From Dictyostelium discoideum (Eukaryota), in contig CM000151.3 in assembly GCA_000004695.1 (NCBI GenBank), positions 5,056,001-5,120,000 on the forward strand: DNA of 64,000 bases, read 5' to 3'. The position numbers and the translations under genes were made by a program. Every line of letters begins with the position of its first letter. The stretch's first letter is position 1. Below are positions 195-27,066 of this stretch, one piece after another. A model generated the notes under the pieces. It worked only from the letters and a program-made list of their open reading frames with translations. It did not search any database and had not been told where the DNA came from.

Positions 195-2343
195 TTATTT
201 TGATTGTGTTGATTCAAATAATTTTATAATTTTCTTTTCTAAACCAGTTATGGAAGAAGGATTATTAATTGAACATTCTGAATAACCTAATAAATTTTTG
301 TTTCTTAATAAATTATCAATTTCAGTTTTATCAACTGGAGTATTATTTGTGGCAGTTGTTGATTCATTAGTTGTTGTTGTTGTTGTTGTTGATTCATTTG
401 TACTAGCTGATGCAGTGGTTGTATTTTTAATATCAGATTGTAAACCTAATAAATAGATTGGAGTATTTGTGAATTGTTTTTGAAGTTTATCAATTTTATC
501 AGTTAAAACATTAAAAGAGTCGACATTTCCAATTGAGAAAGTTGCAATGAATAATGAATTGAAAGGTATACTATAAAGAGTATCCAAACGATAATCATTG
601 AAATATAATCTAGTTTCATCTTTTAAAGTTTTCAAAATTAATGTCTTTTGGAATGATTTGAAACCAATATGTTGATTACCAATAACTAAACCCAATACAG
701 GTATCTTGTAAGTTGACTTCTTGCCAGATGCCTTATAACGACTTCCAAACATTGGTTTTGTAAAACTTTCAGTCTTTGGTTGATCATCATCAATAAAATT
801 ACACCAATCTTCATTCTTATCAAAATTTGAATTTAAAACACCATAATGTTTTGGTAATTTAATTGGAGCATCTTTAGTGGTAGTGGTGGTGGTAGTAGTG
901 GTAGTGGTGGTGGTAGTAGTTGAAGAACTACCTTCACCCTCTGGTGTATTGATTTTATTAGGATCTTCTTCATTTTCTGGTTTTTTGTCATCCAATGCTG
1001 GTGTGGTGGTAACTTCAAAATTTGGTTTATCTAAATCATTAAAAATTGAATCTAAACCTTCAGCATTACCTCTTTCTTTTGCTTCCTTTTTATATTGTTC
1101 ATATTTTGCAGAAGAGGCTTCTCTCATACAAATTGCTAAAAACATTTCAGTGATTAATTCAAAACGTGAGAAAAGTATACAAAGTCCACTAGTTCTTTCA
1201 GAGATAGTTTGATAAAAGTAACGATACTTTTCATGAATTGCAACGATACCATAGATTTTGACACCCAACGCTTCGAGATCGTCACATTCTCTAACCCAAT
1301 TTAAATGATGATTACTATAGTATGGTGGATGTGGAGGACTGTCTCCAATCATGACCAAAGCTTTACTCGTATGAGATGACCATGATAGGAATTTGGCTTT
1401 ATGTAATGCAAATTCGTAGCATTCAGGCTCGTCACCACCAGATGTTGCCTTTACACCATTGATAAAGTTTACAATTTTATCAACATCAGTTGTTAAATCT
1501 AAAATATACAATGGACGCTCCTCACAGAAATCCCCCATTGCCATAATACCAATTCTAATCAATGGAATCTCTTTCATTAATTTAGTAACGGTTTCCATAA
1601 GTTTCTTTCTAACTTCAACAATAACTGCATTCATACTTGTTGTAGTATCAAAACAAAATACAATCTCAACATCATTTGAAATTGAATTACCAATGAAATG
1701 TGATAAAATCTCTTCCTTATTAATAATTGGTATAACATTTTGACTGCCATTCTCTTCACCTGAGCCACCACTACCACCACCACCACCACTTGAACTTGAT
1801 TTCTTTTCCAATATTAATGTTTCCATTCTTTTTACAACGCTATGAACTAATTCTTTATCTGTAAATGTTTTACCACTTTGTGATAATATTAATGGTTGTG
1901 AATAAATATCTGGTTGATTTGCTGCTAAAACTGAACAAATATGACTTTTTTTTTAAAAAAAAGGTAAATTAATATGTATTATTTTTATTTTTTTTTTTTT
2001 ATTTTATTTTTTTTTTTTATTTTTTTTTTTTTATTTACCTTTTTAATTCTAAAATTGTTAAACCAGATTTATTTGGAATTGTAACTTTTAAGACAACTGT
2101 ACCATATTCTACATCAAATGTTAATTCTTTAATTGTTTGTAAATGAATTGTACCTTCTTTTTTAATACCATGTGATCCAATTGTTGCTTGAACATCCATT
2201 GGTTCACCTGCAAATACAAGATTGAATTGATACTCTGACATTGAAGTTCTTTCACATACTTTTTTAATTAATACTTCAACTTTATCTGCTGGATTAACAT
2301 CCAATGAGAATGTAACTGTTGATGTTTTTACTAATATAATCAT
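195..2343 (-). CDS. Ubiquitin-like domain + von Willebrand factor A (vWA) domain protein; 2 exons, approx complement(join(195..1944,2039..2343)), ~684 aa
   Basis: The 102-aa ORF at 2035..2343 has a ubiquitin fold (MIILVKTSTVTFSLDV...GTIHL). It ends at an AG|GTAAAT donor. A T-rich ..AG acceptor at ~1945 puts it in frame (split codon AG+T=Ser) with the 543-aa ORF. That ORF carries a vWA/MIDAS-like core (VFCFDTTTSM..., GDSPPH). A stop lies immediately upstream of the acceptor in the downstream frame. Confidence 0.65.
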
Positions 2344-2864
2344 TTTGATGTTTTTTTTTTTTTTTTTTTTTTTTTAATGAAATAAATTATACAAATACAA
2401 ATACAAATAAAATTTAAAATACAAATAAATGATAAAAAAAAAAAAAAACTGTTTATGAAGTGAAAAAAAAAATAAAAATGATAAAAAAAAAAAAAAAAAA
2501 TCCATAAAAAAAAAAAAAAAAAAACCAATTTTTAGATATTTTTTGAAATCAGTTATTTGAAATCAATTCAATGAAAAAGTTAAAAAAAGAAAAAATAAAA
2601 ATTATTAATAGAAAATACTTTTCATTTTTTTTTTATATACTGAAAAAATAAATAATAATAAAAAAATACAGAAATAAAAATGAAGTTGAGAAATTAATTT
2701 TATTTTTATATTAAAAAGGTTATTTTAATTTATTATTATTAATTATTATTATTATTATTTTATATGTGAATTCAAAATTTTTTACTTTTCACACTAAAAA
2801 GTTTATAGTTTTTTTTTTTTTTTTTTTAAGATTTTATTTATTTAAATTTTATTTATTTATTTAT

Positions 2865-3482
2865 TTAAGTTTTAATATTGGCTTTTTCAATATTTGATAA
2901 AATAAATTGTTTATCTATTCCTTTTTTACCGCTATACCCAATAACCTTACCATTTGAAGAAATAATACGGTGACAGGGAACTAGCAAAAGGAAAATATTT
3001 AATCGGCAGCTAGTCGCAATTGCACGAGCATATTTCTTATCAAGTCCTAATTGAGTAGCAACTGATGAATAAGATAAAGTTGAACCATATGGTATGGTTC
3101 TAAGATGAGTCCAAACTTTTCTTTGAAATTCAGTACCCAATTCTAAATTTATAGGAGTTTTAAATTCTTGTAGTTTTCCATTAAAATACTGATCTAATTC
3201 TTGATTAATTTGTAAAATAATTTTATTATTTGTTTTATTTTTACATTCTTCATCTAAATTTTTACTTTCGTATAATCTTATACCATGTAATGATTTATCA
3301 TCTGCTGTTATCTTTAATGCTCCAATTGGTGATTTTAAAATAAAAGAATTAATTATTTTTATTTCTTCTTCTTTTTCTTCTTTTTCTTCTTTTTCAATTT
3401 TTAATTTTTTATTATTATCATCATCATCATCATCATTATTATTATTATTATTTTCAATTGATTTTCTTATTTTATTATTCAT
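2865..3482 (-). CDS. Methylated-DNA--protein-cysteine methyltransferase (O6-methylguanine-DNA methyltransferase, MGMT/Ogt family), single exon, 205 aa
   Basis: The active-site PCHR motif is present (LLLVPCHRIISSNG). The helix-turn-helix region reads YGSTLSYSSVATQLG. The N-terminal poly-N/D/KEE low-complexity stretch is typical of Dictyostelium. The ATG at 3482 was confirmed on the reverse strand. Confidence 0.85.
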   Translation of the reverse strand: MNNKIRKSIENNNNNNDDDDDDNNKKLKIEKEEKEEKEEEIKIINSFILKSPIGALKITADDKSLHGIRLYESKNLDEECKNKTNNKIILQINQELDQYFNGKLQEFKTPINLELGTEFQRKVWTHLRTIPYGSTLSYSSVATQLGLDKKYARAIATSCRLNIFLLLVPCHRIISSNGKVIGYSGKKGIDKQFILSNIEKANIKT

Positions 3483-4013
3483 TTTTAATTTATTTTATTT
3501 TATTTTATTTTTTTTTTTGGTTGTGTGTTAAAAAATTCATTTTGTAAAAAGGTGAGAAAAAAAAAAAAAAGTAAAAAAAAAAAAAAAAAAAAAAAATAAA
3601 AGACAAAATATTATTTAATACTTAGAAATCCATGGTTGGAACTGACCGTTGGAAAAATCAAAAAAAAAAAAAAAATAAAATTAAAAAAAAAAAAATTAAA
3701 AATAATTTAATTTAAAAAAAAAAAACGTGATTCGCTTGATTTTTTGAATCATTGTTTTTTTCTTTTTTTTTTTTTTTTTTATTTTTTTTTATTTTTTTTT
3801 CCCTAAAGATATTTTCTATTTTTATTTCTATTTTCTATCTTTTTTTTTTTTTTTAAATTTTTCTCTTTCAAAAAAAAAGGTAAAAAAAATTTTAGTAATA
3901 CTACTTGTATGTAGTAATAAAATTTTAAAAATTTCCAAGTAAAAAAAAAAAAAAAAAAATAAGAATTTAAAAATAGAAATTTTAAAAAAAGGGGTATTTT
4001 TAAATTGAAAAAA

Positions 4014-14971: not shown

Positions 14972-15685
14972 ATGGTATTCAGATTTTTAGGTAATAATAA
15001 TAATAATAATAATGAATTACCAGATCAACAATTAATCAATGAAATTGGTTATCTTTCAAATTTTTCAAATGAACAATTAGAACAACTTTTAGATATTATA
15101 TTTGAATTTATGATTATTCAAAAATCTGAACAATTATTAAACCAAATTCAAGAATTTAGCAATGAACATTCAATCAATGAAAATACATTAAAGAATATAA
15201 TTAGAGGATGTATCATTTTCTTTAAATCATCAGCAAAGAATAATTTAACAATTGATCATCTTAGAGAGGACTGTATTCAATTCAAATTGGATGAAGAACA
15301 ATCTAAATTGGTATCAACGAAATATAAACAACATTATATTGAAATCTCTAGATCATTAGTTGGTAACTCTTTAACAATTAATCAAGTTTTAGATATGCAA
15401 TGGAGATTCGGTGTAACAACAAGTTCTTCTGAATTCACAAAATCAAATACAACAGGTTCAACATTTTTACAATTAAAATTAGTTTTAGATAAAGGAAATA
15501 ATATAAAAGAAGATGTTCATATGGGTAAATAATAAAAATAATAATAATAAAAAAAAAAAAAAAAAAAACCAAATAAAGAAACTAATTTATTTAATTTTAT
15601 ATATATAGAATTAACTTTACCTCAATTTTATGAATTTTTAAAAGAAATGCAAAGTGCAAAAGCAAGTTTAGAATATTTTAATTAA
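14972..15685 (+). CDS. COMM-domain protein (COMMD family); 2 exons join(14972..15524,15609..15685)
   Basis: The C-terminus has a COMM-domain pattern (INQVLDMQWRFGVTTSSSE...FLQLKLVLDKG). The ORF ends at ATG G|GTAAAT. The acceptor ATATATAG gives ...EDVHM-E-LTLPQFYEFLKEMQSAKASLEYFN*. This is a typical COMM C-terminal helix. Confidence 0.7.
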
Positions 15686-16460: not shown

Positions 16461-16777
16461 CTTACTCAACATTATAATGATCAGAACTACATAATGTACA
16501 AACTTTAATATTATAAATATGTGGTGAAACTTCATTTTCTATATCCCAAGAGACCAAGTATGAAATTGGATCTTGACCTTGAACATCATTTATATACATT
16601 GGTGGCAATGTTAAACTATAATGAGTACTTATAATTGATTCTTCATAATATAATGGTAATTGTTGAATTATTTTACCACTTTTAGATAAAGATGATGATG
16701 ATGATGATTTTATTTGTTGACGTTGATTTTGTAGTTGTTGTTTTTGTTGTTGTTGTTGTTGTTGTTGTTTAAAACCT

Positions 16778-16809
<32 letters not shown>

Positions 16810-17957
16810 TTTATCATTTACTTCAACAACACCATTATTATCTTGATTATCTTCATTCACTTGATTACCTTGATTATCTTCATTTTCATTATTTTCATTA
16901 TTATCACCATCATTATCATTATCATCATTTTGATGATCATTTTCAAATTGTTTGGTTATAATTGTTGTAGTTGTACGTATTGAATATAAATTTAAGAAAA
17001 ATAAAGATTCTTCTTTTAACCAATTTGCCCAGATTGAAATGATTGGTAAGTTGATATTAGTATTCCAAAGTGTAATTAATTGATTTGATAATGTACACAA
17101 ACAATTTTCACTTAACCAATCACATTCTAATTTGAAAAATTCTAAACTTGAAAGGAGTGGATAATCATCATTATATTTAAAAGTTAAAAAAATTGGTGGT
17201 AATTTTGAAACAGTGCAATAATCTTCAAAATTTTCATTCTCTAATAATTTTGTTGTAAAAGAACTTAATCCAATTCTATCTGCTGGCAAATCGAATGATA
17301 AACATAACTTTTGTTGTTTTTTTTTTAAAAAAGAAAAAAAAAAAAAAAAGTTGATTTGTTTTGTATTGAGTCGAAGGGTGATTTTGTAGTTTTGTGGTTT
17401 CGGATGTTTAAAAAAAAAATAAAAAAAAAAAAAAAATAAAAAAAAATTGTAGTTTGTTGTGTTTGATTGATTGCGTGAGTGGGTGAGTGGTAAAAAAAAA
17501 AAAAGTATGAGTTTTATATTTTTATTTTTAGAATCTAACCACACTTTCCAATTTTTTTTTTTTTTTTTTTTTTTTTTTGTAAAATGATTGATTCGAATTG
17601 AATTTAAAATTAATTAATTTAAAAAAAAAAAATAAAAAGATAAAATATATATTTTTATTTACATACCCTATAACATCTATCAGTGTTTTTTATTATGAGA
17701 AAATTATTTCTATATAATTGTTTTAAAGTATAAATTTCATTTTGTTGTAATGTTTTAATTAAATCGCTTATAATTTTATCTTGAAGTAAAGAATTTTTTC
17801 TACTTCTTGTTTTTATTTCCCCTGGTGATTCATGTTGTAATGGTTGTTGATCATCATAAAATTGTTGATTATTATAATATAATTGTTCATTTATTTGTTT
17901 TTGATTTATTTGAGTATGATTATGATTGTGTTTACCTTTTGATTTATAATGTTCCAT
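16046..17957 (-). CDS. RWD-domain + RING-type zinc finger protein; 3 exons approx complement(join(16046..16361,16466..17307,17667..17957))
   Basis: Exon 1 (MEHYKSKG...QQNEIYTLKQLY...DRCYR) ends AGG|GTATGT. A ~359-bp intron holding a long poly-T/A tract ends CAACAAAAG. Exon 2 (LCLSFDLPADRIG...YPLLSSLEFFKLECDWLSE...) has an RWD/UBC-like fold followed by an acidic poly-N/Q region. The second junction GA|GTAAGT...TTTTAAAG joins ...KVCTLCSSDHYNV-D-FINIFNCNHNFCQECLSAY...CPDQDC...CEHCDQ. This is a RING/IBR-like Cys cluster. Confidence 0.6.
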
Positions 17958-19840: not shown

Positions 19841-19987
19841 TTATGGGGTAATTCTATCTTTTGTACGTTGGTAAACACAAACATTACGAATATGTTCTTC
19901 TTTGAGCATCCAAGTAAGGAAACGTTCAACACCTGTTTTTTAAAAATAGAAAATTGAAAATAAAAATATTAATAAAAAAACAATGAA

Positions 19988-20046
<59 letters not shown>

Positions 20047-22052
20047 TAAAATATATATTTACCTAAACCATAACCACCATGTTGAGTAGTACCATATTTA
20101 CGTTGATCAGTGAACCAATAATATTCATCAGTATCAAGACCAGCTTTTTTATAAGCTGCAACCAATTCATTGAAATCTGAAATTCTCATAGAACCACCAA
20201 CGATTTCACCAACACCTGGCATTAAGAGATCAAGAGATTCAGTGAGAGTTCTATCTTCTGGACATCTAGCCATGTAGAAAGCTTTCATTTCAGCAGGGAA
20301 TCTACAGAGGAAGATTGGTTCACCGATTTGATCATTCATTCTTCTTTCTTGAGCCTCTGGAATATCATCACCAAATTCGAAATCGACTTCAGTACCATCT
20401 TCAAGTTTCTTTTGGATACCATTCTTTTTACAATATTCGATAGCATCGGAATAGTTCATTCTCATGAATGGTCTCTTTGGTACTTTAAAGTCTGGATTGA
20501 CAGAGAGGATCAATTCTGGGTCCATTTTGAAGAGTTTTTCACAAACATCGACAACCAAGAATTCGATACGATCTTGAAGTTCCTCGTAGGTGATGAATGG
20601 ACATTCAGCTTCCAAATGTAAAAACTCGGTTAAATGACGACGAGTACGAGCCTTTTCAGCACGATAACTTTGAGTGATGGTGAAATTGTCACCGAGTACT
20701 GGTAACATAGTTTCGAGGTATAATTGTGATGATTGAGTGAGATAGGCTGGTTTACCAAAGTAGTCGACGGTGAAGAGTTCAGAACCACCTTCACAGTAGG
20801 TGTTTACGAGGGTTGGTGGAGTGACTTCCATATAATGATTTTCGAAAAAGTGTTGACGGAATGCAAACAAACATAATGAACGAATCTTCATGATGGATGA
20901 GGCACGAGTACCTCTCATCATGATATGACGTTGGTCGAATAAATGATCGACGTTTGATTCTTGATTGATAACACCCTCTAAATCGGCATTACTTGGTCCT
21001 AATAATTCCCAGTAGTCTGCTTGGAGCTCGACGCCACCTGGACACTTCTTATCGGCTGGTGGAATCACCAAGGTACCAACAATCTTTACAGTGGCTTCAC
21101 GTAATAATTTATCAATGATTGATGGATGAACCAAGTCACCTGATAAAACACATTGAAGGAAACCAGTACCATCACGTAACTCTAAAAATACAATCTTCTT
21201 TTGATTTCTAACATGATGTGCCCATGCATGAACTTCAACACGTTGATTGGCAAATTTTGGTGAACATTCTCTAATCTTTAATCTCTTTGGTGTTGGTAAG
21301 CTTGCATCTTGTTTCAATGTAATTGCTGCTAATTGCTCTTCAATCTTTTTAACTGGTGCAGTGGTTGTTGCTGCTACTTTCTTTTCTTTAGCTTCAACAA
21401 CTTTTGGTCCTAATGTTGTCTCTAATTTTTTATCTAACATTATTTTAACTTCTTTTAAATCTGCCCATTTTAATGATTCTTTTAATGGATTTAATAAATC
21501 ACCAATTGGTATATGCCATCTTTTATTTAAAAATAATCCAATCAAAATAAAAATAAAAAATAAAAATAAAAAATATTGATGTGGTGTGTTAATAATTTTG
21601 TTTTTTTTTTTTTTTTAAAAAAAAATTTTTAATTTATACTTTTTTTCAGAAATTTCAGTAGCTTTTTTAGTGAATAAATCATCAATAGCTTTTTGAATTT
21701 GTTCTGGTGTGATGACAACACCAACACCACAAAAATCGTTAAATGTATCTTGATTGAATTCTTTGTTATCTTTTAAGTATTGAGTTGCAGCTTGGAATTG
21801 AATGGTGGTTTTAATTTTTTCTTCACCAATTGCTTTTGAAACGTTTGAACGAATTGGTGAGTTTACTTGTTGACAAGTTGCTAAACTATATAAAAGGTTA
21901 CCAATTGATTTATCACAACCTTTTGAAACGGATGCTTCTTCAATAATGGTTTTTAATAATGCAGTAAGATCTTTATTTTTTAAAGTATCTTTTGCTCTCT
22001 TTTCATCTAATCCAATTGAAAGGAATAATTTTTGATCTTCTTCTGTTGACAT
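19841..22052 (-). CDS. asnS1: Asparagine--tRNA ligase (cytoplasmic AsnRS, class IIb) with N-terminal GlnRS-N (YqeY/GatB-like) appended domain; 3 exons approx complement(join(19841..19932,20063..21519,21640..22052)), ~653 aa
   Basis: The catalytic core matches eukaryotic NARS1: LRDGTGFLQCVL, TQSSQLYLE, QSYRAEKARTRRHLTEFLHLEAECPF, RMNYSDAIEYCKK, CRFPAEMKAFYM, GGSMRI, GGYGLG. The last exon is joined via GTAAAT...AACAG to give GGYGLG-VERFLTWML...VYQR. Exon 1 (MSTEEDQKLFLSIGLDEKRAKDTLKN...CGVGVVITPEQIQKAIDDLF) and the start of exon 2 (LKWADLKEVKIMLDKKLETTLGPK) align with the GlnRS N-terminal domain. The first junction is AA|GTATAA...AAATAAAAG (a weak donor). Confidence 0.85.
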
Positions 22053-22944: not shown

Positions 22945-24368
22945 TTATTTTAAAGATAAAACTTTATTTTTAACTAAATCATATTGTTTAAAACGTTTAA
23001 TAGCATAATCTATGTAATCAAAATCGATTGAAGAAGAGAAATGTTGAATTATACCCCAAAATCCCCACATTAAATGAGAACCTAATGTTAAGTGATTTGA
23101 TTCGATATAAAGATTATGAATTTCTTCTTTACTTGGTTCATATAATAATTCATCATTTTCAATATCCATATTTTCATCGTTGATACTATTTTGAATTTGT
23201 TGTTGTTGTTGTTTTTGTTTTTGTTTTTGTTGAATATTTTTACAATTATTAATTGAAATTAAATAATTTTTAATAAATCTTTTTTGAATTTCAATTGATG
23301 GATATTTTGTATAGTCTAAATCTAAACCAGAGAATTCACAAAAGAAATTACCAATATCATAACCTCTAAAATTGTAACCAGAATATTCGAAATCAATAAA
23401 TTTAACTTGACCCTTCTCTTTATTGTAAATCATATTTCTTGGTATTAAATCGTTATGACAAAAGTTGATATACTCTTCACCACTATAATGTTCTTCAATG
23501 AAGGACATTAAAGACATTGCTTCCTCTTTATAACGGTTTAAATTAATCTTTGAGATCATTGAACCCTTTGATTCCTTTGATGTTAATGTCATTGCATTAT
23601 TTATCCATGAATTTAAATTTTTAAATAATGATGTTGAAGATGTTTGTGTATTCATATTTCTTGGTGATAATGTTGAATTTTCTAATGATGGAGAAGTTGA
23701 TGGAGAAGTTGATGATGTTGATGTTGATGTTGATGTTGATGTTGATATTGTTGTTGATTCTTTAATAGACGAATCAGATGATGAAGATAATAATAATTGT
23801 GAATTTGAATTAATATCTAATTTAAGTGAATGCCATCTACCAGTTTCTTTTGCAATTAATGAGAGTATATTATTTTGATATAAATCCTCTAATTGTAATT
23901 GATCACCTTCAACATAACCATAGATACATCCATTTTCAAATGTACCATAAAATTTTGGACCAACTCCATTCTTACTTAATAAATATTGAATGTTTGCCTC
24001 AGTTTTTCTATCTATAAATTGTTCTGATCCTTTACCATATAATCTTATAATAACACTCTTATTACTACCTTGTCCTGTAATAAATGATGATTTAAATAAT
24101 GTATTTGTTACTCCACCGACCATTGGTTTAAATTCTATCTCTTCTTTTAAGTTATTATCAACCAATTCTTTTAAAATTTGACTATAAAAAAAAAAAAAAA
24201 AATTAATAAGTTAGTAAAAGAATTTTTAAAAAAAAAAAATTATTTTATAAATAATATTTACACCAAATTTAAATAATTTTCATTATTTTCAATATTTTCA
24301 TCTTCAAATTCAATATTTGTAGTAACATGTGATGGACCTGGATAAATAATATCTTCAAACTCGTTCAT
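22945..24368 (-). CDS. Choline/ethanolamine kinase family protein; 2 exons approx complement(join(22945..24181,24262..24368))
   Basis: Brenner motif FCHNDLIPRNMIY is present. The choline-kinase motif IDFEYSGYNFRGYDIGNFFCEF is present. The ATP-binding N-lobe reads VGGVTNTLFK. Exon 1 (MNEFEDIIYPGPSHV...NYLNL) ends GT|GTAAAT. The acceptor TTTTATAG gives V-QILKELVDNNLKEE... Confidence 0.8.
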
Positions 24369-25462: not shown

Positions 25463-25710
25463 CTAAAATACTAAAACACCTGCACTCCCCACCCTAATTG
25501 AATCATCACCAGCACTTTTATCTAAATTATATTCATCTTGATCATCATCACGATCATCATCACTAATTATTGATTGTTTTTTAAATACACTTAATAAATT
25601 ATTTTTACTTTCATCAAAACCACTATCATCAGCACCATAATCATCAGCACCACCACCATAACTGTTTCGTATATTAATAATACTCGAATTAATACTTTCA
25701 TTTCTATTTA

Positions 25711-25774
<64 letters not shown>

Positions 25775-25882
25775 GTTATTATTATCATCATCAGTTTGTG
25801 AAATTATTGATGTTGAAACTATAATTTTACTAAATGAATTTTCAGATGACGAATGTGAAATCGAATTTGATATTATATCACC

Positions 25883-25923
<41 letters not shown>

Positions 25924-27066
25924 CAATTGAATGTGGAGGTAATTCAATTGACCCATTATTTATATCGTATTGTTGTTTTTCATATTTATATAATGCATCT
26001 TTTTTATTCTCTCTATATTTTGATACCATGACAGCACCAACACCAAATAAAATTACAAAACCACCTACAATATTTAATGGAGTTAATATTTCACTTAAGA
26101 AAATGTAAGCCAACACTCCAGTCAATAGTGGTTCCACTGTGAGATACACAGATACAGTGGTAGAATCACTTTTTGCAACAGCCCAACTTGATGCAAAAAA
26201 TGCATATGCAGTTGCAAATATCGCACAATATATAACAGATAACCAACCAAATAATGAAATTTGAGCAACTTGTGAACTAATTTCACTTTTTGCAATAAGC
26301 AATGCAATTGCTATCACTGGTGGTGTACCAATTGTAAATGACCATGCCATACATTTTGATGCACTCATACCACCATCATCAATCAATGGTTTTTGTGATA
26401 ATAAAAATATAGCATATGCCAATGTGTTTCCTAAAAAACATAAATTACCAAATAAAATATTATTCCTATTTGAATCATTTGATTTCAAATGTGTGAAATC
26501 TACCATCAACACTGCACCAATCACTGCAATTGCAACACCTATACTATAATAATAAAAATAATAAAAAAATTAATAAATTATTTTTTATTTTTTTATCAAA
26601 ACACACACACACACACACGGACATACAATTTTAATTTTGTTTTTCTTTCAAATTTTAATAATACAGCAAGGATTGCACTGAATACTGGGGTTAGGGGTTG
26701 AACGATTGCAGCATTAGTGGCACCACTGAGATAGAGACCGTAGAGGAATAATGATTGATTTATAGTTACTGAAAATATTCCAGATATTGATAATAATATA
26801 AATTCTTTTTTTGTTGGTAATTTAAATACTGTGTCTGGTGATAATATTATTGCCATTAACCAAAGTAATGGTGTTGCAATAACTAATCTAAACATTAAAA
26901 ATACGAATGGTGGTATATTATCCATTGCTAATTTTGCAACTATATAAAATACTGAAAATACTAAACATACTGATAATAATACTAAATGAACTTTTAAATC
27001 TTCAAATGTAATTCCTTTTATAGTTTTTTTTATTCTTGTTTTTAATGAGAAATCCATTTTAACCAT
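25463..27066 (-). CDS. EamA-domain drug/metabolite transporter (DMT superfamily, WAT1/nodulin-MtN21-like); 2 exons approx complement(join(25463..26543,26627..27066))
   Basis: Two EamA halves with about 10 TM helices. Exon 1 (MVKMDFSLK...LAVLLKFERKTKLK) ends TT|GTATGT. The 83-bp intron contains (GT)n. The acceptor TATAG gives F-IGVAIAVIGAVLMVDF.... The cytoplasmic tail is poly-N/D-rich. Confidence 0.75.

Follow-up and report, generated by a model that had tools for sequence, protein, structure and literature searches.

Eukaryotic glutaminyl-tRNA synthetases (GlnRS), such as yeast Gln4 (PDB 3tl4/4h3s) and human QARS1 (4ye6), are class I enzymes that carry an N-terminal domain (NTD). In Gln4(1-187) a bundle of seven helices is followed by a GVGIGIT linker and a bundle of four helices (PMC3333875). 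Mutations in its GVG and Trp residues lower the binding of tRNA-Gln 4-12 fold (Grant et al., PMC3333875), the G112P substitution increases the Km for tRNA by a factor of 10, and deletion of the whole NTD impairs both growth and tRNA complementarity (PMC3333875). A GlnRS-type NTD has also been described on a second synthetase, the asparaginyl-tRNA synthetase (AsnRS) of kinetoplastids (Gowri et al. 2012, PMC3532385; Parrot et al. 2021, PMC8319005), the published cases being those of L. major (LmjF.34.2340), L. tarentolae (LtaP34.2190) and Trypanosoma spp. (PMC3532385, PMC8319005). Parrot et al. reported in addition that the GlnRS of trypanosomatids lacks the NTD, and treated the arrangement as trypanosomatid-specific (PMC8319005).

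Here we analysed a 64-kb window of the Dictyostelium discoideum genome (the window being the whole stretch of DNA examined, to which all positions refer) that contains the annotated gene of the cytosolic AsnRS (asnS). The best explanation of this locus as a whole, which we hold to be very probably right, is that of a cytosolic AsnRS with a complete GlnRS-type NTD, an old appendage likely to act in cis as a tRNA-binding arm. The gene occupies 22052..19841 on the minus strand, and its three exons form a coding sequence of 1962 nt translated into 653 aa:

22052..21640, minus strand: exon 1, with the start codon, residues 1-137 and two bases of codon 138, encoding, for the GlnRS-type NTD, the seven-helix lobe, the hinge (G109-V110-G111) and the initial helices of the tail lobe
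21639..21520, minus strand: intron 1, 120 nt, phase 2, GTATAA...AAAAG
21519..20063, minus strand: exon 2, which completes the tail lobe of the NTD (W156 included; the lobe ends at about residue 175) and continues with the basic linker 176-225 (pI 9.7), the OB fold that binds the anticodon (232-311) and the greater part of the class IIb catalytic domain
20062..19933, minus strand: intron 2, 130 nt, GTAAAT...ACAG, with an (ATT)n microsatellite
19932..19841, minus strand: exon 3, with the C-terminal 30 residues (end of motif 3, VERFLTWML...) and the TAA stop

Base composition is consistent with this three-exon model: exonic sequence has a GC content of 35-42%, introns and flanks are at about 10%, and upstream of 22052 the value falls to about 10%. 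Much of intron 2 is occupied by some 18 ATT/TTA trinucleotide repeats (19988-20042, minus strand). The first splice junction falls at residue 138, within the NTD, and is crossed without a gap by both the human GlnRS and the Pfam alignments. Unspliced read-through from exon 1 meets a stop after 8 codons, and among all GT..AG pairs of the neighbourhood 21640/21519 is the only one that keeps an open frame while sparing the conserved tail lobe; the other open-frame pairs begin inside the GVGV codons and remove at least 80 residues. Once spliced, the product matches the asparagine-tRNA ligase of D. discoideum AX4 (EAL69912.1 / XP_643772.1 / UniRef100_Q554D9) at 653/653 residues, and 2-8 residues set it apart from the proteins predicted in assemblies of D. 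citrinum, of D. cf. discoideum and in further ones of D. discoideum. The orthologue of D. purpureum, 72% identical, has an intron of 132 nt (GTAATA...AATAG) at the identical position and phase, between ...SEKK and WHIPIG..., in a gene model (1501-3901 of the fetched locus) with about five introns, as estimated from ungapped tblastn pieces, compared with two in D. discoideum. As judged from the sequence, the gene model presented here is the reference one and the 21640/21519 splice is right. That splice had been proposed in the initial annotation, and in-frame domain continuity, identity to XP_643772.1 and the D. purpureum intron at the same site all speak for it; the four peptide blocks quoted there, IGNLLYSLA among them, lie within the translation.

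Residues 226-653 correspond to a typical eukaryotic cytosolic AsnRS (human NARS1, 8tc8, E 5.5e-168). Pfam recovered the OB fold PF01336 at 232-311 (E 3.5e-12, 46.5 bits vs a cutoff of 27) and the class II D/K/N core PF00152 at 330-647 (E 1.8e-69), and the class II motifs 1, 2 and 3 can be read from the sequence (...EVTPPTL..., ...SYRAEKARTRRHLTEF... and ...GGYGLGVERF..., respectively). The best PDB matches of this part were human NARS1, Brugia AsnRS and Entamoeba AsnRS, while the NCBIfam equivalog TIGR00457 (asnS) scored 385 bits against a cutoff of 342.6 and the AspRS and LysRS models stayed below theirs. By these sequence comparisons the core is assigned to the NARS1-type class IIb AsnRS, of the Asn rather than the Asp or Lys family, in line with what had been claimed initially. 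Animal AsnRS (human NARS1, 8tc8/5xix) shares an orthologous linker, OB fold and catalytic core with the Dictyostelium enzyme, with 70-78% of the query aligned at about 52-57% identity, whereas its own appendage belongs to an unrelated Pfam family (PF20917/UNE-N) that is missing here. Since the alignment with human NARS1 starts at human residue 78, paired with approximately residue 180 of the Dictyostelium protein, the GlnRS-type NTD sits where human residues 1-77 (UNE-N) do, and the basic linker is common to both.

Residues 4-158 match PF04558 (tRNA_synt_1c_R1) with E 2.8e-50 and 170.9 bits (cutoff 28.6), passing the gathering threshold and covering model positions 1-161 of 162; this match is far beyond chance. 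The title of the family is 'Glutaminyl-tRNA synthetase, non-specific RNA binding region part 1'. When the N-terminal 211 aa were compared with PDB sequences by phmmer, residues 6-188 of this region retrieved human GlnRS (4ye6, E 4e-25), and the yeast Gln4 NTD (3tl4) was matched with E 6.6e-16. Against the same N-terminal region, Pfam returned no match at E <= 1 for PF20917, the N-domain of animal AsnRS, for PF04557 (R2) or for PF02637 (GatB_Yqey). The description of this N-terminus as GlnRS-type is thus borne out for the R1 region, and so is its distinctness from the N-extension of animal AsnRS, but the R2 region and the YqeY family, which had been named along with it, went unmatched. In place of the R2 region of GlnRS, the Dictyostelium AsnRS has the basic linker that aligns with human NARS1 from residue 78 onward. 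A similarity search with the NTD alone returned nothing, and one started from an alignment of 7 NTD sequences gave only short fragments of plant GlnRS, probably because the word index was swamped by the Lys/Ala-rich linker. Within the 64-kb window, tblastn detected neither a second copy of the NTD nor a GlnRS gene, and no tRNA genes were found.

A model of the NTD was obtained with AlphaFold (AF2) from a 20-row alignment of GlnRS NTD fragments and no templates, so that the model leans toward the GlnRS fold; a run on the single sequence was uninformative (pLDDT 49.8). The alignment-based model (pLDDT 85.6, pTM 0.72) comprises seven helices in residues 3-108 and a further four in 116-174, with 109-115 as a short linker between them, the same layout as that reported for yeast Gln4(1-187) (PMC3333875). 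Foldseek searches against the PDB placed human GlnRS (4ye6, TM 0.73) and the Gln4 NTD (3tl4, TM 0.68) first, followed by GatB chains (3ip4_B, probability 1.0, E 0.045; 3h0l_B; 3kfu_I). Compared with the helical/tail domains of GatB and with stand-alone YqeY (3ip4_B, 3kfu_I, 1ng6, 8xje), the model showed 8-19% identity, with just 74-83 residues superposed. Going by the model, the likeness to YqeY/GatB would be a resemblance at the level of the fold at most; in sequence, PF02637 gave no match at E <= 1. Taken by sequence and predicted structure, the N-terminal ~175 residues can be firmly regarded as a bona fide GlnRS-type NTD.

The distribution of the architecture was explored through an exhaustive phmmer search with the NTD against 1.84 billion cluster representatives, which gave 458 matches at E <= 1e-3; among the best 150 of these 458, 57 had a GlnRS core, 5 an AsnRS core, and the others were fragments. 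About 60 proteins with precomputed PF04558+PF01336+PF00152, transcriptome ORFs and kinetoplastid genes among them, were listed in a profile search that used full-length sequences. They comprised all sampled dictyostelids (Dictyostelium spp., Heterostelium, Acytostelium, Tieghemostelium, Cavenderia and Synstelium), other Amoebozoa (the protosporangiids Ceratiomyxa and Clastostelium, Phalansterium of the Variosea, and Vermistella and Stygamoeba of the Discosea) and Euglenozoa (Diplonema papillatum, the 'Hpha' transcriptome, Papus of the Prokinetoplastina, and several Trypanosoma and Leishmania). For AsnRS of animals and of the red alga Galdieria, PF20917 was listed instead of PF04558. The domain is not universal in Amoebozoa, as the Entamoeba histolytica AsnRS chain 3m4p (identified as such in PMC3532385) has 456 aa and leaves no room for it. 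An AsnRS with the NTD that is attributed to the glaucophyte Gloeochaete wittrockiana (MMETSP) groups with amoebozoan sequences, and its transcript shares a 90% cluster with a transcriptome ORF and a JGI metagenome protein; it may be a contaminant, or else mark a third lineage that has this domain arrangement. An 1100-aa metagenome protein in which the NTD (72-255) is joined to a TonB-dependent/SusC-like outer-membrane region was set aside as a probable assembly or gene-calling chimera.

The kinetoplastid enzymes share with that of Dictyostelium the domain order PF04558, PF01336, PF00152, a NARS1-type core and an NTD with the GVG hinge and the Trp. They differ in their length (672-895 aa), in extra N-terminal extensions and in a 17-aa insertion in the core, and their NTD is 26-31% identical to that of Dictyostelium. 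Moreover, whereas kinetoplastid GlnRS lacks the NTD (PMC8319005), the D. discoideum GlnRS (P14325) has one (PMC3333875), so that in Dictyostelium both amide synthetases carry the module, in one case on a class I and in the other on a class II enzyme. Our literature searches for a Dictyostelium or other amoebozoan case of AsnRS with a GlnRS-type NTD found no description, and they brought up no experiment on an AsnRS-borne NTD. The label 'trypanosomatid-specific' is too narrow for an architecture that is also found across Amoebozoa and in diplonemids. The initial annotation was accurate in what it observed and for the most part in how it read it. The novelty that it implied does not hold, in that the protein was already annotated (Q554D9) with a precomputed PF04558 and the architecture had been published for kinetoplastids (PMC3532385, PMC8319005). 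Its alternative wording of a 'domain swap' is misleading, given that the NTD is old and conserved across Amoebozoa and that the D. discoideum GlnRS retains its own (PMC3333875).

Identity to D. discoideum among dictyostelids ranges from 55 to 87% in the NTD and from 69 to 94% in the core, and in Euglenozoa from 26 to 31% and from 48 to 50%, respectively. The NTD evolves faster than the core, yet it is clearly maintained, as a constrained rather than a decaying domain. Substitutions between closely related Dictyostelium strains and species cluster in the NTD and the linker (in D. citrinum, seven of the eight differences fall in residues 38-191), so that the appendage outpaces the core even at short range. 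Across the sampled lineages of Amoebozoa, the NTD is an old conserved appendage located at the position of PF20917 in animals.

Two explanations would deprive the fusion of this age or of its existence. The GTATAA donor of intron 1 differs from the canonical GTAAGT, and exon 1 might accordingly be read as a separate small gene, or as a pseudogenised GlnRS fragment, outside the AsnRS mRNA. We give this reading practically no credence: the PF04558 domain runs in frame through the junction of exons 1 and 2, a product of exon 1 alone would have a truncated tail lobe, exon 2 offers no in-frame ATG before residue 165, the position and phase of the intron are kept in D. purpureum, the spliced product is the reference protein, and the same fusion is seen in contiguous transcriptome ORFs of Phalansterium, Ceratiomyxa, Clastostelium and Vermistella. 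It is also highly improbable that the domain was shuffled recently within Dictyostelium by copying from the organism's own GlnRS gene. The presence of an NTD in P14325 (PMC3333875) would provide a donor, but the architecture occurs in every sampled dictyostelid genus as well as in Ceratiomyxa, Clastostelium, Phalansterium, Vermistella and Stygamoeba, the identity of the NTD declines in step with that of the core, and the identity of this NTD to the GlnRS NTDs found does not exceed about 41%.

The role of an ancient NTD fused to AsnRS is a separate matter, on which an alignment of 61 AsnRS-borne and 55 GlnRS-borne NTDs is informative. Only seven columns (G14, Q85, A89, G109, V110, G111 and W156) are conserved at >=80% in both sets, and four of them, G109, V110, G111 and W156, are 87-100% conserved across the 61 AsnRS-borne domains. 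Through the human GlnRS alignment, these four map to G112-V113-G114 and W160 of Gln4, W160 being the Trp packed against the hinge. The conservation of the very hinge GVG and Trp that Gln4 needs favours a role in tRNA binding, and a cis-acting tRNA-binding module is the most likely function of the NTD on this analysis. No column separated the 61 AsnRS-borne from the 55 GlnRS-borne NTDs at >=70%, which gives no sign of adaptation to tRNA-Asn and would fit a tRNA contact of a generic kind, not one specific for Asn. Taken whole, the NTD is near neutral (pI ~6), the linker 176-225 being basic (pI 9.7), so that any positive RNA-binding face of the domain would have to be local. That the NTD is not markedly basic could equally suit a module used mainly for protein-protein interaction, for example for docking AsnRS to a multi-synthetase complex or another partner, and the human GlnRS NTD does stabilise the association of other components of the multisynthetase complex (work cited in PMC8319005). 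We nevertheless consider such a principal role unlikely, as the AsnRS of T. brucei, which has the NTD, was reported absent from the cytosolic multi-synthetase complex (PMC8319005), weakening the docking explanation, and as conservation in the NTD is highest at precisely the hinge GVG and Trp on which Gln4 depends to bind tRNA.

Under the favoured tRNA-binding role, a class IIb AsnRS composed of an OB fold and a catalytic core with motifs 1-3 would carry the GlnRS-type NTD in place of PF20917/UNE-N, tethered to the core by the basic linker. The NTD would work in cis as a tRNA-binding arm of low specificity, the closure of its hinge possibly clamping the body of the tRNA and lowering the Km for tRNA-Asn, as experiments showed for the homologous domain of yeast Gln4, while the basic linker would contribute as in other eukaryotic class IIb enzymes.

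The number of times that AsnRS captured the domain was addressed with neighbour-joining (NJ) trees (200 bootstraps) of 88 and then 116 NTDs. They recovered a near-pure group of amoebozoan AsnRS NTDs (33/34) and a pure euglenozoan group (19-20 sequences), with bootstrap values below 5% at the deep nodes and no bipartition between AsnRS-borne and GlnRS-borne domains. In BLAST comparisons, the amoebozoan AsnRS NTDs scored on average 76 bits against GlnRS NTDs and 56 bits against euglenozoan AsnRS NTDs; since the GlnRS set was preselected for likeness to the Dictyostelium NTD and Euglenozoa are fast-evolving, these scores are no guide to one versus two captures. The AsnRS core of D. discoideum is 52-57% identical to those of animals and 48-50% to those of Euglenozoa, and this lack of any special affinity between the amoebozoan and euglenozoan cores does not point to whole-gene transfer between the two groups. 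The presence of the NTD in both Amoebozoa and Euglenozoa is the reason for proposing, as a scenario that we find improbable, that AsnRS acquired it only once and very early, close to the root of the eukaryotes or at it, instead of as two lineage-specific oddities; the NJ trees and BLAST scores speak neither for nor against it. AsnRS and GlnRS, the amide-specific synthetases that displaced the GatCAB transamidation route, would then have inherited the same GatB-like tRNA sensor, able to recognise something that tRNA-Asn and tRNA-Gln have in common, and on AsnRS PF20917 would later have taken its place in several lineages, animals and red algae included.

These results leave the genome annotation unchanged, the gene and its domains being already on record. 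Their value for the evolution of aminoacyl-tRNA synthetases is modest, and lies in an architecture that extends more widely than kinetoplastids and that in Dictyostelium coexists with an NTD-bearing GlnRS. Dictyostelium constitutes a genetically tractable, non-parasitic system for studying the role of a GatB-like module on a class II enzyme, and for asking whether the NTD senses something common to tRNA-Asn and tRNA-Gln. The domain is also a source of misnaming in public databases: a 750-aa AsnRS of Trypanosoma melophagium with PF04558+PF01336+PF00152 is named 'Glutaminyl-tRNA synthetase' in NCBI/UniRef, a name evidently taken from its N-terminal domain.

The neighbouring ORFs of the AsnRS gene in the window correspond to unrelated housekeeping genes:

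14972-15532, plus strand: COMM-domain protein
16462-17544, minus strand: RWD-domain protein with long poly-N/poly-Q tracts
22945-24165, minus strand: choline/ethanolamine kinase (PF01633, E 4e-92)
25463-27066, minus strand: two-exon EamA-type transporter

A transporter gene (EamA/UAA/TPT matches) likewise lies upstream of AsnRS in D. purpureum, which hints at partial synteny between the two species at this locus.
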